Source: Candidatus Pacearchaeota archaeon (GTDB taxonomy: Archaea > Nanobdellota > Nanobdellia > Pacearchaeales > UBA284). Taken from it: DNA of 64,000 bases. Positions 44,033 to 63,928 of the stretch are shown here, in pieces; position 1 is the first letter of the stretch, and the number at the start of each line of letters is the position of its first letter. Both the position numbers and the translations under genes were made by a program. The stretch lies in assembly GCA_026395795.1 (NCBI GenBank), contig JAPLYB010000040.1, forward strand, positions 5,464-69,463, written 5' to 3'. The notes under the pieces were generated by a model. The model made no database searches and was not told the DNA's origin. It worked only from the letters and a program-made list of their open reading frames with translations.

Positions 44033-44082
44033 TACCCCTTTGGGTTCGGAACCTTTATATAGTCGAGGAATGTGCTATATAC

Positions 44083-45357
44083 ATGGTTAAGAACATCGAG
44101 GAATATTCAGAACTTCTCGAGGACAAAGACCTCAGAAGATGGTACGAGAATGTTGGTAGAGGATCAAAGATAACTGCGGATGTTTATCTGAGAAGACTTG
44201 GCAACTTCTATAGAACTTATAAGAAAACTCCGAAGGAACTAATCAAGTTAAGTGAGAGAGGTGTTTACAACTTGATTCTGGATGTTATCGGAGATATGGA
44301 AAGCAAGAAATTTTCTGGGAGTTATATTCATTCTGTTATAAAGGCAATAAAGTCATGGTTAGCATTCAATGGCAAGGATATAAAGCGAAAAATAAGAATT
44401 AAGGGAGTTCAGGAAACCCCAACACTAGACAACGAAAGAATCCCTACACAAGACGAATTAAAAAAGATATTTTTGGCAGGGGATGAAAAAACAAGAACAG
44501 CATGCGCATTTCTTGCTCATTCTGGCTTGAGGCCCGAGGTGCTTGGGAATTATCGTGGAGATGACGGATTAAAAATAAGCGATCTTCCTGAACTTGAGAT
44601 TAAGGGCGATAAAGTTGAATTTAAAAAAATACCCGCCTTAATAAGAGTAAGGCCAACTTTAAGCAAAACAGGAAAAGAATACCTTACTTTCCTAAGTGAA
44701 GAAGGTTGTGAATATCTTAAAGCATATCTTGAAATGAGATTAAGAACAGGGAAATTAACAGAAAATTCAGCGATTATAACGCCAAAGCTGGCAAATAAAG
44801 AATTTATTACATCAATTAACATTGGAGATGCAATCAGGAAAGCCTTAAGAAAATCTGGTTTTCCTTGGCGTCCTTATGTTCTTAGGTCTTATTTTGATAC
44901 TCAAATGATGATAGCTGAATCAAAAGGCTTGATAATAAGGGATTACAGAACCTTCTTTATGGGGCATAAAGGAGATATCGAGCATGTTTATACACTCAAC
45001 AAAAAAAGGCTTCCAGAAAACATAGTAGAGAACCTCAGAGAATCCTATAAGAAAGCGCAAAAATACCTGCAAACAGGAGAAACTGGGAAGGATGAAGAAA
45101 TAACTAAATCATTCAAAAAACAACTATTGCTTGTCGCTGGCTTTAAAACTAGTGAGATTGAAGATAGCCAGTTAGCCCTTAATGATGATGAGTTTCAGAA
45201 GTTAGTAAGGGGGAAACTTCTTAAGAGTATGGAGAACAATGGCATCAAGCAAAAAATAATTCCCACAGCGCATATTGAAAATTATATAACGCAAGGATGG
45301 GAATTTGTATCAAACCTGCCGGATAATCGTGCAGTTATCCGAGTGCCCGAGAATTAA
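44083..45357 (+). CDS. int: tyrosine recombinase / integrase (intact, tRNA-adjacent)
   Basis: C-terminal catalytic region with AHSGLRPEVLG (Arg), HKGDIEHVYT (His..Tyr) motifs; 51 nt downstream of tRNA-Arg. Confidence 0.75.
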   Translation: MVKNIEEYSELLEDKDLRRWYENVGRGSKITADVYLRRLGNFYRTYKKTPKELIKLSERGVYNLILDVIGDMESKKFSGSYIHSVIKAIKSWLAFNGKDIKRKIRIKGVQETPTLDNERIPTQDELKKIFLAGDEKTRTACAFLAHSGLRPEVLGNYRGDDGLKISDLPELEIKGDKVEFKKIPALIRVRPTLSKTGKEYLTFLSEEGCEYLKAYLEMRLRTGKLTENSAIITPKLANKEFITSINIGDAIRKALRKSGFPWRPYVLRSYFDTQMMIAESKGLIIRDYRTFFMGHKGDIEHVYTLNKKRLPENIVENLRESYKKAQKYLQTGETGKDEEITKSFKKQLLLVAGFKTSEIEDSQLALNDDEFQKLVRGKLLKSMENNGIKQKIIPTAHIENYITQGWEFVSNLPDNRAVIRVPEN

Positions 45358-45677
45358 TCTCCCTTTTCTTTTTCTTTATACAAGAAAAACAATATAGGAA
45401 TAGCATCTTTGGATTTTTTCATTTTTCTTAATTCTTTTTCAAAATCTTTCTGATTCTCATGAAAAATCATCTTGTAAGAGAATTTTGATTTTTTATCTTC
45501 TAATTGAGGGAATTTATCTAAAAACTTTTTCTTAAGCCTTATTAAATTCCATGCGCCTTGATTAGTGGTATAAGAGACTATTCCTTTAACACAAACACTT
45601 GGAGTAACTGGTCTTAATACCTGTAAATCACTATCTTTAATTTCCTCATCTCTAAGGTCTTCTTTTACAAGAGTCAT
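45354..45677 (-). CDS. hypothetical protein (107 aa)
   Basis: ORF only, convergent with integrase. Confidence 0.3.
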   Translation of the reverse strand: MTLVKEDLRDEEIKDSDLQVLRPVTPSVCVKGIVSYTTNQGAWNLIRLKKKFLDKFPQLEDKKSKFSYKMIFHENQKDFEKELRKMKKSKDAIPILFFLYKEKEKGD

Positions 45678-46140
45678 TCTTTCACCACCTTGTAAGCAGA
45701 ATTTAGATAATTCTCACATAAAATGCAACACAGAACATAAACATAAAACCCCAAACATGAAATGAATGGGGTTGGCATGTTACATGCCCTCCTTAAAGTA
45801 CATAACAGGAATCTTAAATACAAGAAAGTTAATATAAAACAGAACTGACTCTAATTTCTCATTCTTCAAATTACTCTGAAGCTTGATCATGTTTTTCCTA
45901 TCAAACTCTTTAACGCCATCAAGGGTTTTTATCTACTCTAACATATATTTTCAAGTATATATAAAGCTTTCTAATAGTATCACTGCAAAATGACAAACGA
46001 TAGAAAAATTTAAAAGAGCTGAAGTCTTATTTTATGAATCGCCCATTTTTTAAAAACCAGAATATAAAGAGGTTCAACTATTGACCGAAGATTTACATAA
46101 TTTTTATAAAGCTCGACAACTATACTTCATTAATAGGAAA

Positions 46141-46890
46141 ATGAGTAAAAGAGGACAAGTTACTTTATTTGTAATTATCGCGATTATTATAGTTGCTTTA
46201 GCTTTGTCCTTCTTTTTTATATTTAAAGAAAAGATTGCTATCCCAAGAATAGATCCAAAACAAATCATAGAAACGAGAACAAGAATGGATTACATCTCTG
46301 AGAAGTCAACTTATGATATTCTTTACAAAATTGGTGAACAAGGGGGTTATTTAGATTTACCCCCACAGTCTTTAATAACTGAAAACAAACAAATAGCCTA
46401 TTCACTTTATGATAATAAGAATAATCTTCCTTCTTTGAGTTTTATTGAAAACGAAATTTCAGATTATACGGAAAAAACCATTGTTTTTTATTTAAATGAT
46501 TATTACAGAACAAATTCAACAAGTTCAAACATAAACTCAACAAATTTTGATTTTGATAATATAAGTGTCCAAACAATCATACAAAATGAGGAGATTATAA
46601 TTAAAACTAGTCTTCCAACAACAATTCAGGGCAAAAATGATGAAACTTTTCACATAGATTCTTATACAACGACAGTTCCATTTCAGTTTGGTTATGTTTA
46701 TTCTATTGCTAAAGATATTACAGAAAGAAGATTAAGACATCAAGCAATAGACGAATCTTATTTCAGAAACAAGGCTCTTTCAGTTGATGTAATTCCTATA
46801 GACTCAACAAAAATCATCTATAGTTTAAAGAAGTTCGATAATGCAAACAATAAAACCTTTGTCTTCAATGTAGCTTTTTTTGAACCATGA
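46141..46890 (+). CDS. type IV pilin-like protein (class III signal peptide, SKRG|QVTLF)
   Basis: MSKRGQVTLFVIIAIIIVALALSFFFIF; ATG at 46141 preferred over TTG at 46081; shares GGYLD block with the other two pilin-like proteins; stop overlaps the giant-gene start (ATGA). Confidence 0.5.
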   Translation: MSKRGQVTLFVIIAIIIVALALSFFFIFKEKIAIPRIDPKQIIETRTRMDYISEKSTYDILYKIGEQGGYLDLPPQSLITENKQIAYSLYDNKNNLPSLSFIENEISDYTEKTIVFYLNDYYRTNSTSSNINSTNFDFDNISVQTIIQNEEIIIKTSLPTTIQGKNDETFHIDSYTTTVPFQFGYVYSIAKDITERRLRHQAIDESYFRNKALSVDVIPIDSTKIIYSLKKFDNANNKTFVFNVAFFEP

Positions 46891-49800
46891 AAAGAAAAAC
46901 AAACCAACAGATGATTAAAAGTGTAATTTCAATGTTTATAATTATCCTAATTATATCCACAACTTTTTCAAGTTCAGTCCAGATTGCAAAAGCAGATGAA
47001 ACCTTAAATCCTGAACAAAGCACAAAACTATTGGAACTTTTACATGATAAAACTTCAGCTTCAGCATATTTTTCAAACAAAGCAAACTTTAATCAAGATC
47101 CTTTTCTAAGCCAAGCTTATTTTGGAAACATTTCTACTTCTACATTTTCTTTTTGGAGAGATAAAAATTTAGTGTATAATAGCCAGAATAATGAGATAAG
47201 CAATAGCAAGTTCGTAATAAACTTAAATGATTTTTACCAAGACTCTTTGTTTTTTTATGGGGATAAAAGCATTGAGCTTAATGGAAACAAAATTTATGGA
47301 AATGCATATATATCAAAGGCAAATGATACTTTTGAAGAAACATTTATTCTTAAAACTAATTTTCCAAATCTTGATAAGATTCTTGTAACTTTCAAAAGCA
47401 ATAATGCAACAATAAATATCACCCCCGACAGCCTAGTTTTTCAGGGGCATGTTGTTGTAGATGTTTTCCTAAAAACCAAAAGAAAAATCTCTTTTGAATC
47501 ATTTAGTATCACAAAAATAAATAAAGACCTAAAAATAGAATCAAGAGATTCTTCATTAACTTTGTCAAAAATCTTTGAGCCAACTCAAAATAACTTTGAG
47601 TTTTATTTTCCAGAACACAAATTTCAAGGAACATCAATAATCTTCTTCAAAAATGCGAGCATTGACTCAATAGATAAAGCACAATTAATAAACTCTTCAT
47701 ATTTTGACGATAATTTTTATGCCAATTATAATAGTGGCTTCTTTTCTTATACTTTAAACAAGCAAAACTTATTTTTTAATTCAAAACCAACAACCTCGGG
47801 AATATTCATAGATTCAAATAAAATAACTGCTCGGGGAATTTTCTCAATATTTATTGACAAATCGCGCTTAAATATAAACTCTGAAAATGGAAATTCGGTT
47901 TTAGAGTATTCATGGACAAAAACGAATGATAATTATAACTATGAATATAGTGCAAATGGGAATTTAAGTATAGATACGAGAGATTATAGCACTAGAGGAG
48001 ATTTAAAAATTTCTGAGAAAACAACAGATAATATAAAAAATTTAGATGTCTCTTTACAATCAAGCCAATCAGCTGTATTAAAAATAAAAGTGTATTCTGA
48101 TGATTCTTACTTTTCAGAAGCTTTAGATATTCCTATAACCCTCAAAAAATCTACTAGTTCCTTTTTAATTGATGAAAAAACACTAAAACAGATAACTGAG
48201 TTAAAAACGAAAAACGGAATAGGTCTTTATTATTCAAAGATAAAAGTAACTACAGGAAATAATGTTCTTAATATAGACCCAGAGACTAGTTGGTTTAATA
48301 CAATTCAAATAGACAAATCAATTACGGGTCAGACTATAATAAACATTATTGGCAAAGCAATTCAAAATAATCCTGAAACAGAACCAGAAGGCAAGTTTAA
48401 TGTTCTTTCCCCAGACCAAGTTTCTCAAGAAATAGGACAAGTTAATGATGAAATTTGGATTGATGGTGTGCAAAATGCAAAACTTGAGACTTTTGCTCGA
48501 GCATTAAGGGAAGCAAAATGGCAACAAGCCTCTTCAATTCTTTCAGGGTTTAAGTCTTCAGGGGATGAAACAAACTTAGCCATATACAGTAGAATAAAAG
48601 AAAATGACCCCATTCTTGTTGAACAACTAGAGTCGAATCAATTTTCCTCTACCTTTTTTAAGAACCTCGCAAATTCTATAGATTATCTAAAAAAATCAGA
48701 AACAGCTGAACAAGAGTATTCTAATATTCAAAAACAGTTTTCAGCTAAAAATCTAAAGTATGATGTTTCTCCAGTAGAACTAGAATGCAAGAATAAATAC
48801 CTTCTTTATAACAGATTTCAGATTATTTCTCAGTCTGGAGAAAATTCAGAACAATCTCCAGTAGAATACAAAGCAAGTGAGATTGCAAGTTCAATTGGAG
48901 TTTCAGTTTATCAGCTATATCAATTAAACAAAGATCAATTACTTGGTGCTATTTATGATTTTGATAAAAACGAGATAATTGATTCAAAAACAAATGAACC
49001 TTTCTTATTTAATGAAAATATTACTTTTCTTGCTCCAGACACGCCCCTTACTTTGTCGGCAAAAGAACAATTTGTTGAATCTCTAAGAACACAAGTTTAT
49101 GCTTCAAGATACTACAAAACAGCTTATTCTGGGATAAAAAGCTTAACAACTGCGGATGAAGACGCAAGACAGCAAGTAGATAATCTAAATAATCAAATCG
49201 CAAATGACAAGAAAGTTTATGCTTTCCACAAATTCTTAAGAGATAATCAAATAGACAAAAAAATTCACGATAAAAAATATAGTGAAGCTTCTCAATTACT
49301 TGATAAATACCCTGAAAAATCATTTGTTTCTCAGTATATAAAAGAAAAACTGCAAGATAAAGAAATTGATTTTTCGCAAGGGGATATTTATGCTATGCCC
49401 ATAGATGAACAAACTCCTGGATTTGGTTTTACTGGAATGATTGTTGCTAATACAGAAACATTTTCAAGAAATCCCCTAATTCAAACTTTAATGGGAGTAG
49501 ATTCTTCTGTAAAATCTGGATTAGAGTCAGGTATAATTAAAAATTTCAGAGAGCAACTTGGATTAAATAAAGAAAGTTTATTGGATTCAGATGCATTAGA
49601 ACTTCTTGCTTCATACAACGCTCTTGAAGAGTATACTAACAAATACAAACAAATAGAAGTAGGCATTAATGACAAAACAATTATTCCTAGCGAAGCACTT
49701 GAAGAAGAAATTGCTATAATCAATCAAAAAATAGCAGATTACACTAAAAAAAGCGATAATCTTTGGTTTAATGCTTACAGAAAGTTTATGCTTTCTTCAA

Positions 49801-52577
49801 GCAATATCCCAACAAAAACAGTAAAATCTCCTTTAACAAATATTATTTATGATACTACAAAAACCTTTGAACAAAATAATTTTGACAAGCAAGCTAAAGA
49901 TGCGATTAAATTTGTTGTTTCTGTCGGAGTTATTGTCATAGCAGGAATAATTTCTGGAGGAACAGGCGCAGCAGTTGCTGGCTATTTAATAGAAGGACTT
50001 GGAGCAACTGCAACTTATGCAGCAACTTGTGCATTTGTAACAAATGTTGTTGTTTTTAGCGTTATAGCTTCTTATGGAAATGCTGCAATTCAATCTTCTT
50101 TTGAAAATGAAGATATCTTAACTGCATGGAACAATGAAATTGGCTGGAATCCTGAAAAAGGTCAAATTGGACAAAAATTTGTAAGAGATATTTCTTGGAA
50201 TTTCGTAATGTTTGGAGTCTTGCAAGGAACAAGCCAGTTTTTTAGAGAATGTAAATTCAATTATAATGCTTATAGCACATTAAAGACACAAGGATTGTCT
50301 GAAACAGAGATAAACTCTTTACTGAAAACTTCTGATGGAAAATTATTAGTCTCCAAATTTCTTGGCTCTGGAACAGGACAATTGCTTGCTCCAGTTTCTG
50401 AATTGGCTATATTTGATTTAATTGGGATAGGGCAACAAGGAACAGAAGTTGTTTTATCAAATGAGCTTTCTAAAGATGAAAAATTACAAGCAATAAAACA
50501 GTCTTTAGAACCATCAAGCATAGCAAAAATGTCTATTGATAATGCCAAATTTTTAATTGGACTTAAAACGGCAAATTCTGTTTTTTACAGTTTGACAAAA
50601 TCAATGCAATTAACAAATGAATTAAAGGCAAATTATCCACAAATGGAAGCAACAAGACAAGCACAATTAAAGGAGCTTGTCTCAACTGATTTACAAATCA
50701 GAGATAAGCTTTATGAATATGTCCAACAACCAACGAATGACAATCTAAGACAAAAATTAATCGACTTACAAGGGCAGGCACAACTTTTAAGGCAAAGTGC
50801 ATTAAGCCAACTCGGGAATTCTCCAGAAGATATACTGTTAAAATCAGAAATTTTGGATAAAGCGGGGAATGTTCCATTTACTTCTAGTAAAACATATCAG
50901 TTAGCTGAAAGATTAACCATTGATTCAAGAGTTGAAAGAACTTTCCTTTATGATGAAAAAAATCCAATAACAAGAGAAAATTTAGAAGAAATATTCCCCA
51001 ACGCTTTAATTCTAGAAGGCAAGGATAGAATCTTTACAATAATTAAAGAGGGAAACTCGTGGAATGTTGCAAAAACAACAGCAAGCGCTGAACAAATAAA
51101 TGCAGAAAAAAGTTCAGCAGAAACTTATAAGAAAACTGTTGTTGATGCGCCAGGAGTTGGAATGCTGGCGCTTCCTGCCTCAAATACCGTTCCTATCTCA
51201 GAAATTATGCAAAAATACTCCAATCAGGGAGTTGTTTTTATACACGCCTTAGACCCAATCGGTTTTAGCGGATATGAATCTTGGAGTTTAATAAGAAAAG
51301 GAGTTAGTTTGCAAGACAGGATGAATATTCTTTTAGGTTTAGAACCGTATATCGCAGCCTCAACAATTACACCAGGAGTTGGAGATAAAATCTGGAAAGG
51401 AATCGGCGTTATATTAAATGGAGGAGATATTACCTATGCATGTCCTGGCTCTGCCTGCTCAATATCAAAAGGAATATATGACCGAGTAACTTCTATCGGT
51501 GCACAAATTCCAAGAGGGCAATTAGATACAGACATAGATGTTGCAGTGAAGAGAGAGTATGAAAGCCCCACCACTCTTTCATCAGAATATTTGATAAAAG
51601 AGTATAATGAATTTGGGGTTAAAAATCCCAAAGTTGCGGCATTTTATATATCATTGGATTCTAAATTTAAGAATAGTATATCCACCTCTACGGCATTGAA
51701 GTATATACAAGAAATCTGTGCTAATCTGGGCTTGCCATTATATACTATCAAAGACGGAAGAATTTACGAAATAAAGAGCATAGAATATAAAACAAATAGC
51801 AATGGCGATTCAATTAGTTGGGAATTTATTCTTGGTAAGGAAATTTCAAATCAAGAAATTCTTCAAAGTGATTTTGAATTGTCTCCTCAAAATAAACAGA
51901 AGATGATGAGAGATTTATTTGCAATCTTTCCATTTTCAAATAATGAAATACAATTATACAGAATGTGGAGTATGGGCAGAGAAGCTTATATTGATATAAA
52001 TTCTTTAAAAAATCCTTCTGAATTTGAGGGGGAAAAGATTAATGTTAATGGAGAAGTAAACATTGCTTATATAATAAAAAATGGTCAGATTTTTAAGTCA
52101 GCTAGCACAACAACTTCTATGGGATTATGGGAGAATTATGGATTTCCTCCCAAAGCGATTTCTTTAAGATTAAATGGTGGATGCTTTACTTTTTTATTCA
52201 GTCCCAGAGAAATTCCACATCCCTCATCTAGACCTCCCCTTCTGGAAAGCAAGGATTTCTTAACTTCTATTCAGTCTCTTTCTAAATCAAAATTAGAAGA
52301 TGTAACGCGAGAAGATTTAGCTTATGCATTGTATGGATTCGGTGAAGAAGCAGCAAAACATAAGGATTTTGCAACCCAAAAAGTTGCATTTGAGATGGCA
52401 GAAAGAATGGGTTTTTCTGAAGCCAAATATGAAAATATAAGAGACTCTAGAGGATTTTTAAATAATGAATTTAAGATGTTCTTAGAAGACTTTAGTGATA
52501 AAGATGTAGGATTAGTAAAGGAAAAAATTGCAGCGGTATTTGGCTATATCCCTAGAGAATTTTATAAAAGTGAATAA
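46887..52577 (+). CDS. giant (1896 aa) low-Cys secreted protein with signal peptide and central Gly/Ala-rich TM block
   Basis: Signal peptide MKRKTNQQMIKSVISMFIIILIISTTFSSSVQIAKA; hydrophobic block AIKFVVSVGVIVIAGIISGGTGAAVAGYLIEGLGATATYAATCAFVTNVVVFSVIASYG; Asn/Ser/Lys-rich. Confidence 0.55.
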   Translation: MKRKTNQQMIKSVISMFIIILIISTTFSSSVQIAKADETLNPEQSTKLLELLHDKTSASAYFSNKANFNQDPFLSQAYFGNISTSTFSFWRDKNLVYNSQNNEISNSKFVINLNDFYQDSLFFYGDKSIELNGNKIYGNAYISKANDTFEETFILKTNFPNLDKILVTFKSNNATINITPDSLVFQGHVVVDVFLKTKRKISFESFSITKINKDLKIESRDSSLTLSKIFEPTQNNFEFYFPEHKFQGTSIIFFKNASIDSIDKAQLINSSYFDDNFYANYNSGFFSYTLNKQNLFFNSKPTTSGIFIDSNKITARGIFSIFIDKSRLNINSENGNSVLEYSWTKTNDNYNYEYSANGNLSIDTRDYSTRGDLKISEKTTDNIKNLDVSLQSSQSAVLKIKVYSDDSYFSEALDIPITLKKSTSSFLIDEKTLKQITELKTKNGIGLYYSKIKVTTGNNVLNIDPETSWFNTIQIDKSITGQTIINIIGKAIQNNPETEPEGKFNVLSPDQVSQEIGQVNDEIWIDGVQNAKLETFARALREAKWQQASSILSGFKSSGDETNLAIYSRIKENDPILVEQLESNQFSSTFFKNLANSIDYLKKSETAEQEYSNIQKQFSAKNLKYDVSPVELECKNKYLLYNRFQIISQSGENSEQSPVEYKASEIASSIGVSVYQLYQLNKDQLLGAIYDFDKNEIIDSKTNEPFLFNENITFLAPDTPLTLSAKEQFVESLRTQVYASRYYKTAYSGIKSLTTADEDARQQVDNLNNQIANDKKVYAFHKFLRDNQIDKKIHDKKYSEASQLLDKYPEKSFVSQYIKEKLQDKEIDFSQGDIYAMPIDEQTPGFGFTGMIVANTETFSRNPLIQTLMGVDSSVKSGLESGIIKNFREQLGLNKESLLDSDALELLASYNALEEYTNKYKQIEVGINDKTIIPSEALEEEIAIINQKIADYTKKSDNLWFNAYRKFMLSSSNIPTKTVKSPLTNIIYDTTKTFEQNNFDKQAKDAIKFVVSVGVIVIAGIISGGTGAAVAGYLIEGLGATATYAATCAFVTNVVVFSVIASYGNAAIQSSFENEDILTAWNNEIGWNPEKGQIGQKFVRDISWNFVMFGVLQGTSQFFRECKFNYNAYSTLKTQGLSETEINSLLKTSDGKLLVSKFLGSGTGQLLAPVSELAIFDLIGIGQQGTEVVLSNELSKDEKLQAIKQSLEPSSIAKMSIDNAKFLIGLKTANSVFYSLTKSMQLTNELKANYPQMEATRQAQLKELVSTDLQIRDKLYEYVQQPTNDNLRQKLIDLQGQAQLLRQSALSQLGNSPEDILLKSEILDKAGNVPFTSSKTYQLAERLTIDSRVERTFLYDEKNPITRENLEEIFPNALILEGKDRIFTIIKEGNSWNVAKTTASAEQINAEKSSAETYKKTVVDAPGVGMLALPASNTVPISEIMQKYSNQGVVFIHALDPIGFSGYESWSLIRKGVSLQDRMNILLGLEPYIAASTITPGVGDKIWKGIGVILNGGDITYACPGSACSISKGIYDRVTSIGAQIPRGQLDTDIDVAVKREYESPTTLSSEYLIKEYNEFGVKNPKVAAFYISLDSKFKNSISTSTALKYIQEICANLGLPLYTIKDGRIYEIKSIEYKTNSNGDSISWEFILGKEISNQEILQSDFELSPQNKQKMMRDLFAIFPFSNNEIQLYRMWSMGREAYIDINSLKNPSEFEGEKINVNGEVNIAYIIKNGQIFKSASTTTSMGLWENYGFPPKAISLRLNGGCFTFLFSPREIPHPSSRPPLLESKDFLTSIQSLSKSKLEDVTREDLAYALYGFGEEAAKHKDFATQKVAFEMAERMGFSEAKYENIRDSRGFLNNEFKMFLEDFSDKDVGLVKEKIAAVFGYIPREFYKSE

Positions 52578-52726: not shown

Positions 52727-53242
52727 TTAAGCGTGGATTATACCCTCAAGTCTTTCTTTGCTATATCTAGTCTCTAATTCACTATCAACGTCTTGTTCAG
52801 TTCTAGTTAGTTGAGTACCAAGACTTTCATCTCCACTTAAACTATTATATTCGTCAAACTTTGTGGCATAAACCCTTAGTTCTCGTATGTTTCTTTTATT
52901 TTCTTGTTTTGCGCGTTTTTTATCTAAACTTTTTCCCTTTGCAATTCCGATTGCCGTACCAGAAATACAACCAACAAGACCACTGAATCCCATCAAAAAT
53001 GGAATGTTAATTGGGGTGTATTCGGGATAAGAAGAACCTCCCGGGCTGATATTCATGAGTATGCCTATCCCTATTCCAGCCAAAGTCCCCAAAACTGCGC
53101 CAGTAACACCACATGCTCTTGCTTCATATGGTTTTTTTGTTTTACATGTTCCTATTTTTTGTCTATAAACTGCTGTTCTATAAGCTTGAATAACTTCATC
53201 CCTTCTTGAAGGGTCATAAATATCTAGGTTTTCTGTTGTCAT
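52727..53242 (-). CDS. glycine-zipper two-TM membrane protein (paralog of 53239..53781)
   Basis: YDPSRR N-terminal motif, two GxxxG-rich helices, charged C-terminal tail. Confidence 0.45.
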   Translation of the reverse strand: MTTENLDIYDPSRRDEVIQAYRTAVYRQKIGTCKTKKPYEARACGVTGAVLGTLAGIGIGILMNISPGGSSYPEYTPINIPFLMGFSGLVGCISGTAIGIAKGKSLDKKRAKQENKRNIRELRVYATKFDEYNSLSGDESLGTQLTRTEQDVDSELETRYSKERLEGIIHA

Positions 53243-53781
53243 CTTAAATTTGCCTCCAATTCCATTCTTTCCCGTTGTTCTTCGAATCTAGCTTTTTCAT
53301 TTATCCCTATTTGTTTAAATAGAGCAACAAGACCTTCACTTTCAGAAAGACCATTCACTTGATCAAATTCTTGAGCATATTGTTCAAAATAATCAGTTTG
53401 TGATTTGTTTTGTTTTATTGCGGCATTCTTATCTGCTTTTCTTCCTTCTAAGACTCCGAATATGCTACAAATGGCTCCAATACCGAGACCACCTAACAGA
53501 AACTCAAGATTAAAATTTGGGTCTGGAGTAGAATAACTTTGATAAGGTCCAGTTGAAACTGCACCAATGGCAAGAGTCTCCAAGAATAGTCCACCCAAAG
53601 TTCCAAAAAGACCAGCCTGAAGTCCACCAGCGATTGCTAGCTTATGATTTTTTACATTATAATTTCCAGTCAATCTTGCGTTAATTAAATCTGTATAAGA
53701 ATTTTTCATTTCTTGCCATCTTGATGGATCATAGACTCCTCTTGATTCTTGCTCTTGTATAAATTGATTTTTCTTTGTCAT
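53239..53781 (-). CDS. glycine-zipper two-TM membrane protein (paralog)
   Basis: VYDPSRW motif, GLQAGLFGTLGGLF and LGGLGIGAICSIFG helices; overlaps the downstream paralog by 4 nt. Confidence 0.45.
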   Translation of the reverse strand: MTKKNQFIQEQESRGVYDPSRWQEMKNSYTDLINARLTGNYNVKNHKLAIAGGLQAGLFGTLGGLFLETLAIGAVSTGPYQSYSTPDPNFNLEFLLGGLGIGAICSIFGVLEGRKADKNAAIKQNKSQTDYFEQYAQEFDQVNGLSESEGLVALFKQIGINEKARFEEQRERMELEANLR

Positions 53782-54185: not shown

Positions 54186-54705
54186 TTTTCAAATTACCTC
54201 CTTTCAGCTTTTTGCTAAATTTATTTATCATACCCGACTTGAAACGAACTGATTTTTACATTTTTAGAAAAAATTATCTCTGGAAGAATGACGAGCTATA
54301 ATTTTTACGACCCTGCACCTTTCTGAAGCTTGCGAAAGAAAGACAAAGCAGATAAGCCCGAAGCCCGCGAAAATTAGGATTAAAGCGAAGCGTGTCTTGT
54401 GGGAACCCTCTGGGGCTAGACTTAATCTTTATTTTCGGGCTGGCGAGGAATAGCTTATTTGCTTTAAGGGGAAAAATCTAAAATGAGGGAGTTTAGGGTA
54501 TGTAAGATAAATAAATGAAAAAAGCGACAAAAAGGAGTGTAAGAAAATAGAAACTAGAAAATGCAATTAGTGAATAGAATCTATCTTTAAAGACAGAGTT
54601 CTGAATAAGGAGTGCAGTAGGTTGGATTTGGGCGTAGAAAAGATTAAAAAGAAGGAGTAACAGAGGCTGTATTGGTGCGTTAAAGGTTGGTAAAGGGGGT
54701 TAAAA

Positions 54706-55674
54706 ATGGAAAATAGTTTAAAAAAGAAAGTCTTAAAAAGTAGAAAATTGATAGTTATAATAGGAAAAGAGAGAAAAAAGATGGTTAAAAATATAAATCT
54801 TAATCTAAGATTTCTAAAAATTAACTATCTAAATAATATTTGTTATTATATCAAAGAAAAAAATCCTAAAGAAGTATTTACTTTAAAACTAATAAATTTT
54901 TTCAAAGAAAACTTTGATAGTAAGTCTATATTTAATTTTCAAGGGATGAACTATCGTTTTGGAGCAGTTGAAATTGGACAAAATCATATTTGTGGTAAAT
55001 TGTGGGAATTAAAAAAGAAACATGAAAAAGATTATCCTTGGACTGGAACGGATTATGAAATAAAACCACAGCTTGGAGCAGATTATCGTTTTGCTTGGTT
55101 TTATATAGACATTCAAACAAAACATTTAGTTTTACAGGATGAAAGAGATTTAACTCCAGATAAAGCTATTCAAGTTTTATGCTCATGGTTTGATGATTTT
55201 CATGGAATAAAAGAAGGGATAAATATTCAATACCTCAAAAGTAAAAAAGACTTTTTAAATGAATTGAAAGAAGCATATAAAATAGTTTATGCTAAATTTA
55301 TTTTGTATCCTAGTAATTTTGACTATGATGGTATAAGCAAACCATTAGATGATAGTCTTCATGCTTTAGAAATAAGTGAAATGAAACAAGAAATAAAAAG
55401 TAATAATGGGGTTAAATTGGAATTAGATAAGCCAAATGTTTTTTCTTCTTCGTTGGCTCAGGCATTAAGGGGTAATGGTAAAGACCCAGAAATAAAAACT
55501 CAAGATAAAAAAGGGAATATTACTATATTAACAAAAAAGATGAAGCATATAAAAAAGCAAATTCAAGGGTTTAAAGATATAAATGATATTAAGAAAATTA
55601 AACCACATCTTATTGCACAACTCAAAGAAGTTATTAAAGAAATGGATAATAAAAATGAAAGCAAAAGTGATTAA
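54706..55674 (+). CDS. hypothetical cytoplasmic protein (322 aa), first gene inside transposon
   Basis: ATG inside the left TIR; no recognisable motifs. Confidence 0.45.
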   Translation: MENSLKKKVLKSRKLIVIIGKERKKMVKNINLNLRFLKINYLNNICYYIKEKNPKEVFTLKLINFFKENFDSKSIFNFQGMNYRFGAVEIGQNHICGKLWELKKKHEKDYPWTGTDYEIKPQLGADYRFAWFYIDIQTKHLVLQDERDLTPDKAIQVLCSWFDDFHGIKEGINIQYLKSKKDFLNELKEAYKIVYAKFILYPSNFDYDGISKPLDDSLHALEISEMKQEIKSNNGVKLELDKPNVFSSSLAQALRGNGKDPEIKTQDKKGNITILTKKMKHIKKQIQGFKDINDIKKIKPHLIAQLKEVIKEMDNKNESKSD

Positions 55675-56140
55675 AGAATTTTTTAAAGCTAAGGCATTTA
55701 CTATTTCAGTGGTTATACTCTTACTTTATGCAATATTTTTTCATGGTAAAATAATAATTGATAAAGACAACTTAGAACACATATTTGGTTTTTTTCTTAC
55801 TCTATTTCCCTTAATAATAGCAATATTTACAATATTAATATCGTTTACAGATAATAAGTTTTTGAAATTCTTAAAAGATACAAAGGGAGCAGATAAAAAG
55901 ACGAGCATATATGATGAAATACTTGCTTATTTCATTATTAATACTATTTTAAGTTTGATAGCAGTTTTAATTGCTGGATTTGTCTTTTGTTTTAAACTAT
56001 CTGAATATGCTTTCTTGCAGTATATAATGATTTTTGTTTTTTCTTATACCATAATTTCATTTATTCAGTTAATCAGATTTATATTCTATTTTGCTAAGAA
56101 AAAAGCAGATTTTGTTAGTATAACTGAGAAGACATTTTGA
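55655..56140 (+). CDS. small 4-TM membrane protein, hypothetical (start trimmed to MKAKVIKEFF)
   Basis: Four hydrophobic helices; overlaps the stop of the upstream gene by 20 nt. Confidence 0.4.
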   Translation: MKAKVIKEFFKAKAFTISVVILLLYAIFFHGKIIIDKDNLEHIFGFFLTLFPLIIAIFTILISFTDNKFLKFLKDTKGADKKTSIYDEILAYFIINTILSLIAVLIAGFVFCFKLSEYAFLQYIMIFVFSYTIISFIQLIRFIFYFAKKKADFVSITEKTF

Positions 56141-57044
56141 TAAGTTCCAACCACTTATTATTCTCCTTCAACTTCAAATCAGTAGCCAATTCATAAGGTC
56201 TTTTATTGATAGCTTGATTTATCCTTATGAAATTATAATAAATCTCATAACCTTTCAAGATTAAATTAGCACTTCTCAAGCTTCCATGAAAACCACGAAA
56301 GACCTTAGTTCTCGCTCTTACATTATTATGCAACCTTTCAATAGGATAATTAAAAACATCTTCTTGTTTGCTTGTAACAACCCTATTATGAAAAACACTT
56401 TGTTTGCCCTCTTTCAAAGAATAACCAAAAACTTTCTTTACTGCTCCAATATAAGCATTTAAACCATCTGTTGTAACCATTTGAATTTTATTAGTTGTTC
56501 TTTCTTTTGCAGAGCTAATTATAGCAGTTATCTTCTTCTTACTTCTACATTTTGAATATTCAGAAGCTATCATAAATCTAGTAGTTGGGCAAACCCCATC
56601 TATAAAAAAGTTTTCTTCTGTTCCTTTAGATTTATGGCTTTTTCTTCGGTGATATTCAATTTCATCAAATTGTATTTCTTCTGAAATGTTTAGTCTTAAC
56701 TTATCTGTAAATTTACTTATAACCTTAGCATACTTCCAAACCCATCTTAGAATAGTTGAATGGTCTGCGTTATGTGGGAAGAACATGCCTAGATGTTCTT
56801 GAGTTCCACGAGTAGAAGCACCCCGATAAAATAAATCTACTGCCTGTGTTATCTTCTGTGGTGAGTTTCTCATTCTGAAAAAGCCATCATCAAGGGTAAA
56901 AGTTTTATTACAATCTTTACATTTATATCTCTGTATAAGCCCTCTATTTTCTGTTTTTCTTGTAGTCCATTTTATAGTATTCTCGGACTTGCAGAAGCGA
57001 CATATTATTTTATTCTTGGTATTTTGTGTTTCCATTTTATCCAT
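56115..57044 (-). CDS. IS6-family-like DDE transposase with N-terminal zinc ribbon
   Basis: CRFCKS...CKDC zinc ribbon; VTTDGLNAY (cf. IS26 TDKAPAY), NYPIERLHNNVRAR, FHGSLRSANLILKGYE blocks matching IS6/IS26 transposase architecture. Confidence 0.65.
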   Translation of the reverse strand: MDKMETQNTKNKIICRFCKSENTIKWTTRKTENRGLIQRYKCKDCNKTFTLDDGFFRMRNSPQKITQAVDLFYRGASTRGTQEHLGMFFPHNADHSTILRWVWKYAKVISKFTDKLRLNISEEIQFDEIEYHRRKSHKSKGTEENFFIDGVCPTTRFMIASEYSKCRSKKKITAIISSAKERTTNKIQMVTTDGLNAYIGAVKKVFGYSLKEGKQSVFHNRVVTSKQEDVFNYPIERLHNNVRARTKVFRGFHGSLRSANLILKGYEIYYNFIRINQAINKRPYELATDLKLKENNKWLELIKMSSQLY

Positions 57045-57148
57045 TTACCTTATAGGTATAACCTATTAAGTAATATTGACTATTTAAATCTTTCGCTTTG
57101 GGTATAACTTAATAGGTAAGTTTATAAACCATAAAAATATATATCTAT

Positions 57149-57316
57149 ATGGCAGAAATAAAAATTGAGGTAATGTCCTATAAGTGTGACAGATGTGGTC
57201 ATAAATGGATACCAAGAAATAAAAATAAACCGATTATATGCCCACTTTGTAAATCACCTTATTGGAATATACCTAGAAAAATCTTTAAAAAGGCGGAAAA
57301 TAAAAATGCAAAATAA
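57149..57316 (+). CDS. 55-aa zinc-ribbon protein (CxxC...CxxC), not in ORF track
   Basis: Translated by eye: MAEIKIEVMSYKCDRCGHKWIPRNKNKPIICPLCKSPYWNIPRKIFKKAENKNAK; promoter-like GTTTATAAACC ~25 nt upstream; overlaps MTase start by 11 nt. Confidence 0.45.
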   Translation: MAEIKIEVMSYKCDRCGHKWIPRNKNKPIICPLCKSPYWNIPRKIFKKAENKNAK

Positions 57317-58517
57317 AAATTATCTTGATATTATACTTGCAAAAAGCAAAAAACATCTAATATCTGAATTGGGTATAGCAGAAACTCAAAAGTTTATAGA
57401 AGAAGTTAAATCAAAAATAACATCTAAAGAAAATAAAGAGATTATTAAGCAATTTAATGAAATATATACTAAAAGAATTAAAGACAAATATCAAAAAGAT
57501 ACAAGCCCAGAATACGATAAAAGACTTTTTAGTTTTATAAAGAATAAAAATAACAAAATAAAAATAGTTTGGGGGGATTGTTATGAAAACCTAAAAAAAC
57601 TTCCTTCTGAAAGTGTGCATTTAATGGTTACTTCTCCGCCTTATTATAACGCAAGAGAATATTCGCAATACGGGGATTTAAATAAATATCTTGAAGATAT
57701 GAAAAAGATAATTACTGAGTGTTATAGGGTTTTGGACAATCATCATGTTTTTGTTTTTAATGTTGGCGATATTTTTGATAATGATAATTTAGTTAGTAAA
57801 TCGGTTTGGGGGGATAGAAGGTTGCCCCTTGGGGCTTACTTTATTAAGATATTTGAAGATGTGGGTTTTACTTTTGTTGATGACCTTATCTGGGATAAGG
57901 GAGAAGTAGAAAGTAAAAGGCATAAAAATGGGAATACTCCTTATCCATTTTATCAATATCCTATGAATTGCTATGAACATATTTTAATTTTTCATAAGCA
58001 TAGATTAGATACTACTCATTTTCCTTGCCCTGTTTGTGGCACATTACAAGTAAATGGAAATACCCAATCAGAAATAGGTTTAATGTCTTGGGAATGTAAA
58101 AACTTAGAATGTTTTGAGAGAAGTGCTAGTGACAGAGGAAAAAGATTTTCATTAAAAACTAATATGACTCAAAGTCCATCAATCAGAGAAGGTAATGAAG
58201 TGCCACATGATTTAATTAAAAAGTGGAGACGGGACATAACTAAATTTTCTCCTGTAATAAAAATAAATAGCAAAGGAGAAAACAAATTAGGGCATACAGC
58301 ACCATTCCCAGAAGACATACCCGAAATGGCAATTTGGTTTTATACTTATAAGGGGGATATAGTGCTTGACCCATTTGCAGGAAGTTTTACTACTTGTATA
58401 GTTGCTAATAAATTAAGCAGAATTGGGGTTGGAATGGAATTAAGAAAAGATTTGTTTGAGAAAGCTATAAAAGATAATTTAAATAAGAAGAAACAGGATT
58501 TTGAAGTTTTTAAATAA
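57306..58517 (+). CDS. DNA methyltransferase (N6-adenine/N4-cytosine, beta-class, ParB-MTase-like) with internal Zn-finger insertion
   Basis: MVTSPPYYNAREY (DPPY-type catalytic motif IV), C-terminal AdoMet-binding region LDPFAGSFTT (FxGxG-like), CPVCG...WECKNLEC insertion; start at MQNKNYLD rather than track start 57186. Confidence 0.8.
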   Translation: MQNKNYLDIILAKSKKHLISELGIAETQKFIEEVKSKITSKENKEIIKQFNEIYTKRIKDKYQKDTSPEYDKRLFSFIKNKNNKIKIVWGDCYENLKKLPSESVHLMVTSPPYYNAREYSQYGDLNKYLEDMKKIITECYRVLDNHHVFVFNVGDIFDNDNLVSKSVWGDRRLPLGAYFIKIFEDVGFTFVDDLIWDKGEVESKRHKNGNTPYPFYQYPMNCYEHILIFHKHRLDTTHFPCPVCGTLQVNGNTQSEIGLMSWECKNLECFERSASDRGKRFSLKTNMTQSPSIREGNEVPHDLIKKWRRDITKFSPVIKINSKGENKLGHTAPFPEDIPEMAIWFYTYKGDIVLDPFAGSFTTCIVANKLSRIGVGMELRKDLFEKAIKDNLNKKKQDFEVFK

Positions 58518-59288
58518 TTATTCCAATGCTTTAAAATTATTTTCAAATCTTTTCCATTTTCCATAATCTTTAGAACTAAAATGTTGTCTATCTTGGTCTT
58601 TTAAAAATGATGTTCCTTTCATAGAATTACCCATCGTTTTAATAAAGTCCTGAACAGACATAACTAAAAAATGTGGTTTGTCATCATCATCTATTAAGCA
58701 CCAAATAAAGAAATGGTCTTTAGAAATTATCATGTCTCTTGGTTTATGGTCTGTTGCGTAAGTATTTTTTGATTTTTCACCGATATATTCTACTCTTGAA
58801 GATTTTACTTGTATTGACCTGAATTTTGTTTTATACTCTTTAGAACCACAATTACAATAATAGTTAATCAATTTTACTTCCCCTCCACATTTATCACAAG
58901 TTGGAATAAGAGTAAAATTATCCACGCCTTTATTGTCACATTTTTTACAATTCGTGCTACTTCCTTCTGTTCTTGTTTTACATTTATTGCATATTTTTAT
59001 AGGTTTAATATTTCTTTTTTCAGTTTTAGAAAAGTCTTTATGACATTTATTACAAATTAAAGAGGGGGTCATAGCCCAGCTCTTACCACATTTTGCACAA
59101 GCGTATTTATGGGCTATAATATCAATATATTCATCATACATAGGACTATACACATTCCAACCATGTTTAGATAATTCAAAAGAAACTAAAAACTCCCCAT
59201 ATCTTGAAAAGTGTTTTACATTCAAATCAGAAGTCGTTTTATAATGTTCTTCTTGGGCTTCTTCTTGTTCTTCTATATCCTTTTCCAT
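58518..59288 (-). CDS. multi-zinc-ribbon protein with N-terminal PD-(D/E)xK-like region; candidate restriction endonuclease partner of the MTase
   Basis: At least five CxxC pairs (CAKCG, CNKCH, CNKCK, CKKCD, CDKCG); N-terminal YSPMYDEYIDIIAHK; convergent and abutting the MTase 3' end; ATG inside the right TIR. Confidence 0.4.
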   Translation of the reverse strand: MEKDIEEQEEAQEEHYKTTSDLNVKHFSRYGEFLVSFELSKHGWNVYSPMYDEYIDIIAHKYACAKCGKSWAMTPSLICNKCHKDFSKTEKRNIKPIKICNKCKTRTEGSSTNCKKCDNKGVDNFTLIPTCDKCGGEVKLINYYCNCGSKEYKTKFRSIQVKSSRVEYIGEKSKNTYATDHKPRDMIISKDHFFIWCLIDDDDKPHFLVMSVQDFIKTMGNSMKGTSFLKDQDRQHFSSKDYGKWKRFENNFKALE

Positions 59289-59391
59289 TGATAGATTAGG
59301 TAAGACCTATTTTTAATGCTTTCTACCAACCTTTAACGCACCAATACAAACAGAGGCGAACATTTATAAAATAGGAGGTTATCTCGGCTGT

Positions 59392-61114: not shown

Positions 61115-61744
61115 ATGAGCTATAAATTACTAATTAAGAAATTGATGATTGATAAAAAGAAGATTATCACGAGGGAAGAATTAAAAGAATATTGCAAAAA
61201 TTTTAAGATGTCTTATTCTTCTGTAATTGGGTATCTTCTCAGAAATAGGTATGCAGAAAGGATACTAAGAGGAATCTTTTATCTTAAAAGCATAGAAGAA
61301 AGAAAACTTAACAAATCAGACATGAGCTTCTACGAAGCTATCAAAGAAGCTCTAAGGATAAAGGGCGTTAAAAACTGGTATTTTGGCTTAGAAAGTGCTA
61401 TTAAATTAAACAACCTGACTCACGAATACTTTGCCATAGACTTTATTATTTCAGACAAAATAAAAAGAAAGAATACAATTGAGATTTTAGGGCATAAAGT
61501 CAAGTTTCTGACTATTAAAAAAGAGCTAATTAAGTTTGGCATTGAAAAGGGAAAAATCCCTTATTCAGATATTGAAAAAACAATTTTGGATATAGTTTAC
61601 TTGGGGATTTATCGGGGTTATTCGGAATCCACAATAAGAAACGACATAATTGATTATATTGATCTGTGCGACAAGGCAAAGCTTATTAATTATGCAAAAC
61701 ATTATCCTAAGACAATACTAAAGTTCATTCCAAAGACAAAATGA
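61115..61744 (+). CDS. AbiEi-like antitoxin/transcriptional regulator (putative)
   Basis: 209-aa ORF overlapping the start of the AbiEii-like NTase gene by 4 nt; typical AbiEi position. Confidence 0.4.
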   Translation: MSYKLLIKKLMIDKKKIITREELKEYCKNFKMSYSSVIGYLLRNRYAERILRGIFYLKSIEERKLNKSDMSFYEAIKEALRIKGVKNWYFGLESAIKLNNLTHEYFAIDFIISDKIKRKNTIEILGHKVKFLTIKKELIKFGIEKGKIPYSDIEKTILDIVYLGIYRGYSESTIRNDIIDYIDLCDKAKLINYAKHYPKTILKFIPKTK

Positions 61745-62679
61745 TAAGAAAAGAAGCTACTGGATTTATAAAAGAAAAGACAGGAATAAACAAAAGAGAA
61801 TTTATTGAAAAAGACCTTATTCTAAGCCAGCTTCTCTTTCATTTATCAAAAGAAAAATATTTCTTTGATAACTATGCTTTCAAAGGCGGAACTTGTCTAA
61901 TAAAATGTTATCTTGGATATTACAGATTCTCAGAAGACCTTGATTTTACTTACATAAATCAAAAAGAACTTGAAGGAAAAAGCATGAATCAAATGAGGAA
62001 GTTGGTTTCTGATAAAATAGACAAGGTTGCAGAGATACTTGAAAAAATCGCAAAACCCCTTGACTTGAGATTCAAAGCAGACAAACAGGATAAAGATCAC
62101 TTCCAATTTGGCGGAAGCAATGCATTTGTGACTTTTAAGCTCTGGTATAAATCAACCGAATCAGATAAAGAGAATTTCATTAAACTTCAAATCAATTACA
62201 TTGAAAAGCTTAATTATGCGATTAAAGAAATAAAAGCAAAAACTCTGCTATTGAAAGATTTTGAAAAGGAATTTTCTTCATTGTTTCCAGAAGAATTTGA
62301 ATTTTTAAAGCCCGCAAAAATCAAAACTTATGACATAAAAGAAGTTTTAATCGAAAAAATAAGGGCAATCCTGACAAGAAGGGGTGTTAAAGCAAGAGAT
62401 TTTATTGATGTCTATAAAATAACCAAATTAGAAAATCTTAAACTTGAAGATTTTAAGAAAGAAATAATTGACAAAATAAAAGCCATGCTAAAATTTGATA
62501 AATATCAAACTAACCTAGATAAAAAACAGGAAACTAACTTTTCAGCGGATATAGACAAAGAAAAAATAGTAGCTGAAGAAGAAAAGATTCTCCTTGTGCC
62601 TATCCCAGAAGATTTTGCAAAATTTTTGTCTGAATTTAAGGTTTTTCTGAATGAAATTATTTTGTCTTTAAAGAAATAA
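61741..62679 (+). CDS. AbiEii/DUF1814-family nucleotidyltransferase toxin
   Basis: FKGGTCLIKCY...RFSEDLDFTY matches the FKGGTAL...DIDF signature of AbiEii nucleotidyltransferases. Confidence 0.65.
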   Translation: MIRKEATGFIKEKTGINKREFIEKDLILSQLLFHLSKEKYFFDNYAFKGGTCLIKCYLGYYRFSEDLDFTYINQKELEGKSMNQMRKLVSDKIDKVAEILEKIAKPLDLRFKADKQDKDHFQFGGSNAFVTFKLWYKSTESDKENFIKLQINYIEKLNYAIKEIKAKTLLLKDFEKEFSSLFPEEFEFLKPAKIKTYDIKEVLIEKIRAILTRRGVKARDFIDVYKITKLENLKLEDFKKEIIDKIKAMLKFDKYQTNLDKKQETNFSADIDKEKIVAEEEKILLVPIPEDFAKFLSEFKVFLNEIILSLKK

Positions 62680-62998: not shown

Positions 62999-63928
62999 AT
63001 GGCTAAAAAAGATTTAGAAAATATCAGAGAAAAATTAAAAGAAATGAAGTCTGAAGACTTGGCAAATGAAAGCTCTATTAAAATAATTAAGGACATAAAA
63101 AAAGAAATTGCAAGAATCCTTAAAGATGCAAGAAAGAAAGAAATAAGAGCTGAAAATAAGATTGGAAAGGAAATTCTTATTCATTTCAAGAAACCGTTTA
63201 CAAAAGAAGATGCCTTTCAGAGATTTATCCCAGAATATTCAAAAGAAGAAATTATTAAAGCACTAAGGAAACTTATACGTGAGAAAAGTTTAGAACTAAT
63301 TAGAAAAGACCTTTATTCAGCACAGATTAGAAATTCTGAGCCCATAATTAGGCTATCCCCCGAAATGGAGAATGTGAGAAAAACACTTAATGATAATGGA
63401 ATCAGTTTTCTCATTACTGGTTTAGACGTGCTTCAAGAATATGTAAATCTTATCCCAAAAAGAATGCTTCATCTAGTCTATGTTGCAGATGGTTCTGGTG
63501 ATTTTGTTAAGAATTTAATTGTAAAAAAGACTGGAAAGATGTGCATTATTAATCCCTCAAGGAAAGAAATAAGAGATATGTTCTCTCATTACGCTGAAGA
63601 TATTATTATAGTCCGGGAAGTTGGAGAAAGTGCGATAGAGTATAATAATAAAGGGATTGCAATGATTGAAAAGGCAATTGTTGATTTATACTTTGAAACA
63701 ACCAGAAAGAGAATTCCCTTTGAAGTCTCGGAACTAACAAGTATTTTAAAGAATACCTTACTTAGATTAAAGATAGATTATAGAAGGTTACTAAGAGCCG
63801 CATCAAGAAGAAACCTGCAATCAGAGTTTATTAGGATTTTTGAGGCTTTAGGGCTTCATATTCCCTATGAAAAAATTAAAGAATCTGCAAACGACCAAGC
63901 AGAAAAAGTAATTAGGATGCTAAAATAA
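62999..63928 (+). CDS. hypothetical protein (309 aa)
   Basis: ORF, Lys/Glu-rich helical; no recognised motifs. Confidence 0.4.
   Translation: MAKKDLENIREKLKEMKSEDLANESSIKIIKDIKKEIARILKDARKKEIRAENKIGKEILIHFKKPFTKEDAFQRFIPEYSKEEIIKALRKLIREKSLELIRKDLYSAQIRNSEPIIRLSPEMENVRKTLNDNGISFLITGLDVLQEYVNLIPKRMLHLVYVADGSGDFVKNLIVKKTGKMCIINPSRKEIRDMFSHYAEDIIIVREVGESAIEYNNKGIAMIEKAIVDLYFETTRKRIPFEVSELTSILKNTLLRLKIDYRRLLRAASRRNLQSEFIRIFEALGLHIPYEKIKESANDQAEKVIRMLK

Follow-up and report, generated by a model that had tools for sequence, protein, structure and literature searches.

Insertion sequences (ISs) of the IS6 family end in inverted repeats of 14-20 bp that bear GG tips and cTGTt/caaa motifs, generate 8-bp target duplications, and measure 0.7-0.9 kb, rarely up to 1.8 kb; a single passenger gene is found in only one member (PMC7986276). 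The archaeal members known are about 0.7 kb long and lack a zinc finger, and their own membership in IS6 is disputed (PMC6807381). The DDE triad is followed by a K or R seven residues after the E, with the signature E-DH---K in bacterial members or E--F---K-R in archaeal ones, and ISH15 is listed with a 9-bp duplication (PMC6807381). The thaumarchaeal IS-like transposons hold one or two genes only (PMC6563490), and a 2026 survey of ISs in 17,237 archaeal genomes mentions neither passenger genes nor the transposon family described below (PMC13343696). Restriction-modification (R-M) units bounded by inverted repeats and 8-bp duplications are isolated bacterial cases, no archaeal one having survived the screen (Furuta, Abe & Kobayashi 2010, PMC2853133). 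Here, we analysed a stretch of 64,000 nucleotides (the window) of contig JAPLYB010000040.1 from a Candidatus Pacearchaeota archaeon. It contains a 4681-bp element with predicted R-M genes. This element is very likely an autonomous and intact DNA transposon that belongs to a family from DPANN archaea and has inserted between genes of the Pacearchaeota chromosome.

The 9-mer AACAGAGGC is present at both outer edges of the element (54659-54667 and 59349-59357) and directly abuts TGTATTGGTGCGTTAAAGGTTGGTA (54668-54692) on the left and the reverse complement of this 25-mer (59324-59348) on the right. A first-pass annotation of the DNA had proposed this 9-bp target duplication and the perfect 25-bp inverted repeat, and direct reading of the sequence, counts and shuffles confirm both. 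Specifically, the 25-mer with up to three mismatches has two sites only in the 64 kb, compared with 0 expected in 100 shuffles. The 9-mer also has two sites only in the window, where 0.36 are expected anywhere, and by our own arithmetic the chance of its abutting both ends is about 4^-9. The repeat continues imperfectly further inward. The top-ranked inverted repeat of the region given by the repeat finder pairs 54668-54707 on the forward strand with 59309-59348 on the reverse strand over 40 nt with 88% complementarity, close to the annotated ~42 bp. The motif TTAAAAAT lies in both sub-terminal regions as annotated, but the spacing to a following start codon is not the same in the two: the left copy overlaps the ATG at 54706, whereas the right copy is 20 nt upstream of the nuclease ATG at 59288. 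The right duplication is 34 nt upstream of the ATG at 59392, and joining the two flanks reconstructs an empty site, ...AAGAAGGAGTAACAGAGGCGAACATTTATAAAATAGG..., upstream of that gene. The G+C content of the element is 28.3%, compared with 33.5% in the remainder of the window. The ORF list and profile searches returned the interior genes as first inventoried. Hence the element has one pair of terminal repeats, a target duplication, an internal transposase and genes unrelated to transposition, which together characterize an autonomous DDE transposon with passenger genes, i.e. a transporter IS (tIS) or unit transposon.

Further copies of the terminal repeat, for which the first-pass annotation had suggested a search, bound elements in other Pacearchaeota and Nanoarchaeota contigs. 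The family dataset comprises the DNA around close and distant homologues of the transposase, plus scans for the degenerate repeat TGTATTGGTGNNTTANNGGTTGGT; its loci carry L numbers. The scans matched 7 genome contigs and 30 metagenome contigs, and the repeat pattern was absent from the viral contigs scanned (0 matches); by our own arithmetic, 20 fixed bases should match about once by chance in 596 Gb. L013 (Runella) and L029 were rejected as chance matches, both being GC-rich and without transposase. The repeat itself is present in 5 DPANN metagenome-assembled genomes and about 29 metagenome contigs. The elements with the common repeat range from 0.86 to 6.6 kb, the autonomous ones being 3078-6577 bp long with 5-9 ORFs, and the consensus of 36 distinct element ends is TGTATTGGTGcgTTAaaGGTTGGTg. 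Ten independent insertions, the window included, each have their own perfect 9-bp duplication, and all ten 9-mers differ. Aside from the window element, these are L001 (4456 bp, TGCCCTGGA), L023 (6577 bp, GCAAAATAG; the same contig as L010 plus L014), L057 (5518 bp, ATTTTATGG), L069 (3078 bp, ACTAAAAAG), L070 (4107 bp, GCCTTAAGT), L072 (4920 bp, TGGTTTGAT) and L046 (855 bp, no transposase, ATCTAATAG), together with two insertions each split across a contig pair of one sample, L017/L018 (ATCCTCTCA) and L026/L030 (CTTTTCTCA). The genes flanking the insertions encode housekeeping proteins such as ribosomal proteins, EF-1alpha, RNA polymerase subunits and eIF-2beta, so the insertions are chromosomal and at unrelated sites.

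The diversity of the 9-mers bears on another explanation, in which a site-specific recombinase moves the element as an integrative island and the 9-mer serves as att core. A weak integrase-like gene does lie about 10 kb upstream of the element, beside a tRNA. However, the window has no att-like repeat of this tRNA, no integrase is encoded inside the element, and ten different 9-mers are the pattern of target duplications rather than of att sites. The differing 9-mers therefore rule out an att-type mechanism, and we leave this explanation virtually no probability.

The transposon elements were then compared at the protein and DNA levels. Only three features are shared: the terminal repeats, the transposase, which is 63-90% identical, and in most cases the small Zn-ribbon gene, which is 46-64% identical. 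DNA similarity to the window element is limited to its internal coordinates ~1478-2602 plus the ends. Exchange of cargo probably takes place through recombination between the core and the ends. Of the transposase gene, the 855-bp L046 retains only 63 nt from the 3' end, alongside both terminal repeats and its own 9-bp duplication; as a deletion derivative, it presumably relied on a transposase acting in trans. These copies support the initial proposal of a distinct archaeal transposon family that uses an IS6-like DDE enzyme, as the same repeat and 9-bp duplication bound elements with 63-90% identical transposases elsewhere.

The transposase gene is on the reverse strand (56115-57044) and encodes 309 residues, with an N-terminal CxxC...CxxC zinc finger followed by the DDE domain (D127, D193, and E236 with R243). 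C15, C18, C42, C45, D127 and D193 are invariant in the family alignment, and E236 and R243, located in the segment IERLHNNVRAR, are nearly so. R243 follows E236 by 7 residues, giving the signature E--H---R-R, intermediate between the two published IS6 signatures. The best-scoring IS family model is NCBIfam IS6 (NF033587) with 65.6 bits (cut-off 125), followed by the IS1 model NF033558 with 33.7 bits over residues 15-204 (cut-off 100); Pfam DDE_Tnp_IS240 gives 22.4 (cut-off 27), and PF13610 is a precomputed match in many of the homologues. Sequence-level searches of the PDB returned no match for the transposase. Its 1345 homologues are mostly from DPANN archaea, in groundwater and sediment metagenomes and in metagenome-assembled genomes of Pacearchaeota or Nanoarchaeota. 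The transposase and two of the cargo proteins have identical counterparts in a Candidatus Pacearchaeota metagenome-assembled genome with locus tags NTX24_048xx. A search of 72,556 plasmids with the transposase returned only Clostridium IS6 elements with zinc fingers (~25% identity), plus the N-terminus of the IS1-like ISAcma36. Pairwise alignment to the Clostridium IS6 transposase gives 27% identity over 245 residues, with the D, D and E residues and the zinc finger aligned.

The match to the plasmid-borne ISAcma36 could also be taken to mean that the element belongs to the IS1 family, as a member with cargo, and is not IS6-like. The zinc domain at the transposase N-terminus passes the IS1/IS1595 model (32.2 bits, cut-off 28), and the NCBI names for homologues include 'IS1/IS6 family transposase'. 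Members of the IS1 family have 8-9 bp duplications, ends of ~23 bp starting with GGT, and the genes insA and insB with a frameshift; IS1 itself makes 9-bp duplications. The 9-bp duplication of the window element fits this description. The ends, which have no GG start, depart from it, and one ORF without a frameshift encodes the transposase. Moreover, only the zinc domain common to IS1 and IS1595 passes, whereas the IS1 cut-off of 100 bits is missed widely, the catalytic region scores higher against IS6 (65.6 versus 33.7 bits), and the 245-residue alignment to the Clostridium IS6 enzyme includes all three catalytic residues. Membership in IS1 is therefore unlikely, and the enzyme is better described as IS6-like.

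As an alternative to a single unit, the first-pass annotation had also offered a cargo transposon with a nested IS, i.e. a larger element moved by another enzyme, in which an unrelated IS6-like IS is inserted. This would be in keeping with the IS6-like transposase, since a typical IS6 element is ~0.8-1.3 kb with ends of its own (PMC7986276). Yet no credible inverted repeat flanks the transposase or the transposase/Zn-ribbon core, the similarity between elements being confined to the outer repeats and the core, and the transposase stop codon lies inside the neighbouring cargo gene, with an overlap of 26 nt. Profile searches found no second recombinase inside the element. The outer repeat and this transposase clade (63% to 100% identity) occur together at every complete locus, and L046 keeps outer repeats together with a remnant of the transposase gene. 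Owing to the missing inner repeats and the stop-codon overlap, we rejected the nested IS, which is largely refuted and very improbable, and regard the element as one transposon mobilized by its own transposase.

Divergent from the transposase gene is that of the Zn-ribbon protein (57149-57316, forward strand), which encodes 55 residues and whose 3' end overlaps the methyltransferase start. Copies that are 46-64% identical adjoin the transposase in L001, L008, L039, L012, L045, L027, L034 and L057. The first-pass annotation grouped this gene with the methyltransferase and multi-Zn-finger genes in one module; judged by its conservation, it belongs to the core rather than to the cargo. Between the two core genes, a region of 104 bp (57045-57148) contains two TATA-like boxes and repeated (A)GGTATA motifs. 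This layout, with repeated AGGTATA motifs, is kept across the nine elements aligned and suggests a promoter or operator role. In L037 (442-1266), the Zn-ribbon protein is the C-terminal tail of a 274-residue protein with a P-loop NTPase N-terminal domain that has weak AAA/ORC-Cdc6-like matches. This fusion hints that the Zn-ribbon protein could be a transposition accessory factor.

The right arm of the window element holds two genes. The first (57306-58517, forward strand) encodes a 403-residue N6/N4 DNA methyltransferase with an SPPY motif and an internal Cys-rich insert, which matches Pfam N6_N4_Mtase with 123 bits and PADLOC MTase_II with 308 bits. The second (58518-59288, reverse strand) encodes a 256-residue protein, the 'multi-Zn-finger' protein of the first-pass annotation, which now reads as a predicted PD-(D/E)xK nuclease with a multi-CxxC zinc-ribbon insertion and a presumed restriction endonuclease. 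It matches no family in Pfam or PADLOC, the named restriction-enzyme families included. Its 182 homologues are 56-85% identical and are distributed among bacteria of the candidate phyla radiation (CPR), other bacteria and archaea. They retain E38, D52/D56 and Q160-V-K162 around the block of CxxC pairs, and are always adjoined by an N6_N4 methyltransferase of ~405 residues. A methyltransferase with its catalytic motif beside an endonuclease gene is the gene arrangement of a Type II R-M system. From the conserved residues and the constant methyltransferase neighbour of the homologues, we therefore infer that the pair is such a system, with both activities predicted. Aside from the transposons, a methyltransferase-nuclease pair with 80% DNA identity is present on another archaeal contig (L051, 4935-7574) next to FtsZ, with neither repeats nor a transposase nearby. 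There, the pair is followed by a gene for a 209-residue regulator of the CARF (CRISPR-associated Rossmann fold)/helix-turn-helix (HTH) type in place of the Zn-ribbon gene. As this copy is without transposon ends, the pair therefore also moves as a cassette of its own.

We inspected the corresponding Zn-ribbon-side arm in 15 elements, some assignments being taken from precomputed domains. A methyltransferase or an R-M system is present in 13 of them, and the systems differ from element to element. L045 (91-1870) carries an EcoRI endonuclease (453 bits to E. coli EcoRI, PDB 1ckq; Pfam 494 bits) and an EcoRI methylase (426 bits). A ThaI endonuclease with an N6_N4 methyltransferase is found in L012, a BsaWI-like nuclease with a methyltransferase in L019, and a His-Me finger/endonuclease VII nuclease with a methyltransferase in L026. 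L023 and L057 each encode a fusion enzyme of the Eco57I/MmeI type of ~900 residues. The others are an N6_Mtase/TaqI_C methyltransferase with a small partner (L039), N6_N4 and RAMA methyltransferases (L001 and L070), an N6_N4 methyltransferase with a 330-residue partner (L072), and an NPPF-motif methyltransferase with a small partner (L008). The transposase-side arm usually encodes small membrane proteins. The complete EcoRI system in L045 implies that a classic bacterial system was transferred into DPANN archaea. We tentatively propose, short of favouring it outright, that the family serves DPANN archaea as a dedicated shuttle for defence cassettes and would rank as a new IS/transposon family by its ends, duplication length and architecture. 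Through its fixed slot, nearly always occupied by a different Type II R-M system, bacterial-type EcoRI and ThaI among them, the transposon would spread such systems, and these would hold it in place as addiction modules.

The left arm of the window element contains a gene pair that was first annotated as an unknown cytoplasmic protein plus a protein with four transmembrane segments. The layout stands, and the pair now reads as RexA/RexB-like. The cytoplasmic protein has 322 residues (54706-55674, forward strand) and scores 25.4 bits against DUF4747, just under the cut-off of 27; four of nine homologues also match DUF4747. Conservation among the homologues begins at M26, so the true start may be at 54781. 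The partner gene (55655-56140, forward strand) starts within the upstream gene and ends within the transposase gene; its 161-residue product has four hydrophobic segments, predicted to be transmembrane, and no family over threshold in Pfam or PADLOC. None of the 322-, 161- and 256-residue proteins matches a PADLOC defence model, and the RexA-like protein has no sequence-level match in the PDB. DUF4747 is the domain common to RexA and the cytoplasmic parts of the Sbash, CarolAnn and Butters exclusion systems, in each of which, as in RexA, the cytoplasmic protein is paired with a four-pass membrane protein (PMC7542560, PMC6426606). Thus, the left-arm pair resembles lambda RexAB and the actinophage pairs Sbash gp30/31, CarolAnn gp44/43 and Butters gp30/31 in having a putative DUF4747-type cytoplasmic gene followed by a four-pass membrane gene of ~160 residues. 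It differs in lying under the Pfam threshold, in its archaeal host and in its carrier, a transposon rather than a prophage. With moderate confidence, we consider it a RexAB-like abortive-infection pair. The left arm of L001 has the same layout, with genes for a 318-residue protein and a four-pass protein of 154 residues. The 318-residue protein was rejected as a homologue of the RexA-like protein (hhalign probability 0.09), the likeness being in layout only.

These features suggest how the transposon might work. The chassis consists of the two ~25-bp terminal inverted repeats and the two-gene core of zinc-finger/DDE transposase and divergent small Zn-ribbon protein. The zinc-finger/HTH region of the transposase would bind the 25-bp repeats, and DDE chemistry would join the 3' ends of the element to a target cut with a 9-bp stagger, gap repair then yielding the duplication. 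IS6 elements transpose through cointegrates, and as the catalytic domain here resembles theirs, we slightly favour a copy-in route whose cointegrate would be resolved by host recombination; a cut-and-paste route is nearly as likely. R-M systems are selfish addiction modules. In the slot after the Zn-ribbon gene, a Type II R-M pair would defend the host and stabilise the element by post-segregational killing, and the slot after the transposase gene holds the RexA/RexB-like pair as a candidate abortive-infection system.

Several points weigh against an active, autonomous cargo transposon as described above. The window holds one copy only, and an empty-site allele of its insertion was not recovered: exact-protein look-ups of the flanking genes gave nothing (166 and 180 residues) or a 1.6-kb contig ending short of the site, and the fetched loci contain no empty site for any element. 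The transposase is under the curated threshold of every IS family model, which makes the IS6 analogy a weak guide to mechanism. In two complete elements, L008 (4241 bp) and L039 (4870 bp), the flanks do not match, which could result from intramolecular events or recombination between copies and could equally be assembly artefacts. As to the cargo, the nuclease and methyltransferase activities are deduced from fold, motifs and gene pairing, the RexA assignment from a sub-threshold Pfam match and a low-confidence model, and two of the 15 arms (L034 and L069) are without a methyltransferase. The single copy and the missing empty site would also suit a dead relic, i.e. an old insertion that is immobile or mobile only with a transposase from elsewhere. 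However, the repeat (25/25) and the duplication (9/9) are perfect, and the transposase ORF is full-length and keeps every family-invariant residue of the catalytic and zinc-binding sites. Furthermore, the right-end repeat is identical in L002-L007, whose transposase is 87% identical to that of the window, suggesting recent spread. A relic is thus improbable, and an intact, autonomous element is retained as the preferred reading.

The ends of some sister elements show additional features. In L001, L039, L026/L030 and L046, the two ends differ systematically: the transposase-side end reads ...GTGCATTAAAGG..., and the methyltransferase-side end reads ...GTGAGTTAGCGG... followed by a conserved sub-terminal motif, GAAAGxGTTTTTAA. 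Unlike these, the window element has two identical ends. The 9 nt past the right end, CTGATGTAG, are common to L008 (5316-5350) and L009 (2425-2460), as well as to L016 and L043, after which the contig variants diverge completely. In L008, the sequence that follows, TTCTCTGGTGCATTAAGTGGTC, can be aligned in register with the family repeat, and 2.6 kb beyond it is a second transposase (51% identical). A second related element may thus abut the same 9-mer in L008, an idea left unconfirmed by a search of L016, which contains no far end of such an element. L058 (7893-7946) is identical to L057 until 17 nt before the right repeat and then continues with a degenerate repeat and a different flank with DUF2283 and beta-propeller genes. 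This switch suggests recombination or rearrangement at the element end.

The neighbourhood of the transposon in the window is rich in defence and mobile-element genes. On the left, an intron-containing tRNA at 43910-44032 (Rfam 51.3 bits), missed by ARAGORN, is followed by a 424-residue ORF with a weak tyrosine-integrase match (22.9 bits, cut-off 27.1), a 269-residue ORF and a 1896-residue ORF with no Pfam match. The intron-containing tRNA is in keeping with an archaeal source of the DNA. This region, 43910-52577, may be an integrated element. Between it and the transposon, two adjacent paralogous ORFs of 171 and 180 residues (52727-53781) share an N-terminal 'YDPSR' motif and glycine-rich hydrophobic stretches, and neither matches Pfam. 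On the right, about 2 kb from the transposon, a 209-residue ORF and an AbiEii toxin gene (PF08843, 91.6 bits) at 61115-62679 probably form an AbiE toxin-antitoxin pair. The AbiEii gene is followed by a DUF6577 gene at 62999-63928.

The host-dependent DPANN archaea have very small genomes, and to our knowledge their gene gain and loss are poorly understood. The family provides a concrete route, in which one chassis brings interchangeable defence modules, i.e. R-M systems and possibly an abortive-infection pair, between core housekeeping genes. Transposon-borne R-M systems, so far described in a few bacteria, thereby gain an archaeal example that spans a whole family, and the range of IS6-like enzymes widens to large cargo elements with different ends and a 9-bp duplication. 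We know of no genetic tools at present for the DPANN hosts of this family; the conserved 25-bp ends and the compact transposase could seed such tools.

We found no published description of this transposon family in the searchable literature, ISfinder being outside the scope of the search. Among known systems, the closest are the IS6/IS26 elements, chiefly the long Clostridium clades represented by the C. botulinum plasmid copies L066/L067. They share the order of zinc finger, HTH and DDE domain, the D/D/E residues and a basic residue 7 positions after the E, and derivatives of the miniature inverted-repeat transposable element (MITE) type occur in both. The Clostridium relative, ~1.3 kb long, is free of cargo and ends in classic IS6 repeats, GTTCTGTTAAGTTAT. 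In contrast, the ends of the present family are 25 bp long and read TGTATTGGTG...GGTTGGT, and the 36 distinct ends, of the TGTATTGGTGCGTTAAAGGTTGGTA type, have TGT or TAC tips. The duplication is 9 bp rather than 8 bp in all ten insertions with matching flanks, a difference that is not exclusive by itself given ISH15, and the elements measure 3.1-6.6 kb with 5-9 genes. The first-pass annotation had judged the window element far larger than a canonical IS6 element of ~0.8 kb and its ends unlike those of IS26, and both judgements hold for the family. The transposase remains below the curated IS6 model, although IS6 is its best-scoring IS family, and differs from the known archaeal IS6 enzymes in having a zinc finger. 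On account of ends, duplication length and size, we therefore do not file the family under IS6, even if it appears to work in the manner of an IS6-type DDE element. It is a DDE transposon with cargo, best treated as a new variant, probably of family rank. The units of Furuta, Abe and Kobayashi are alike in having R-M genes within terminal inverted repeats and a short duplication, and one Neisseria unit holds a transposase-like gene. Most of those units are without an identifiable transposase, whereas here a whole family combines one chassis and an intact transposase with many interchangeable R-M systems. The tIS elements and the unit transposons of the Tn3 and Tn7 types likewise combine passenger genes with a single transposase and a single pair of ends, and their cargo is often related to defence. 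The family differs from Tn3 and Tn7 in its unrelated transposase, in containing no resolvase or targeting proteins, and in its host range, the DPANN archaea.

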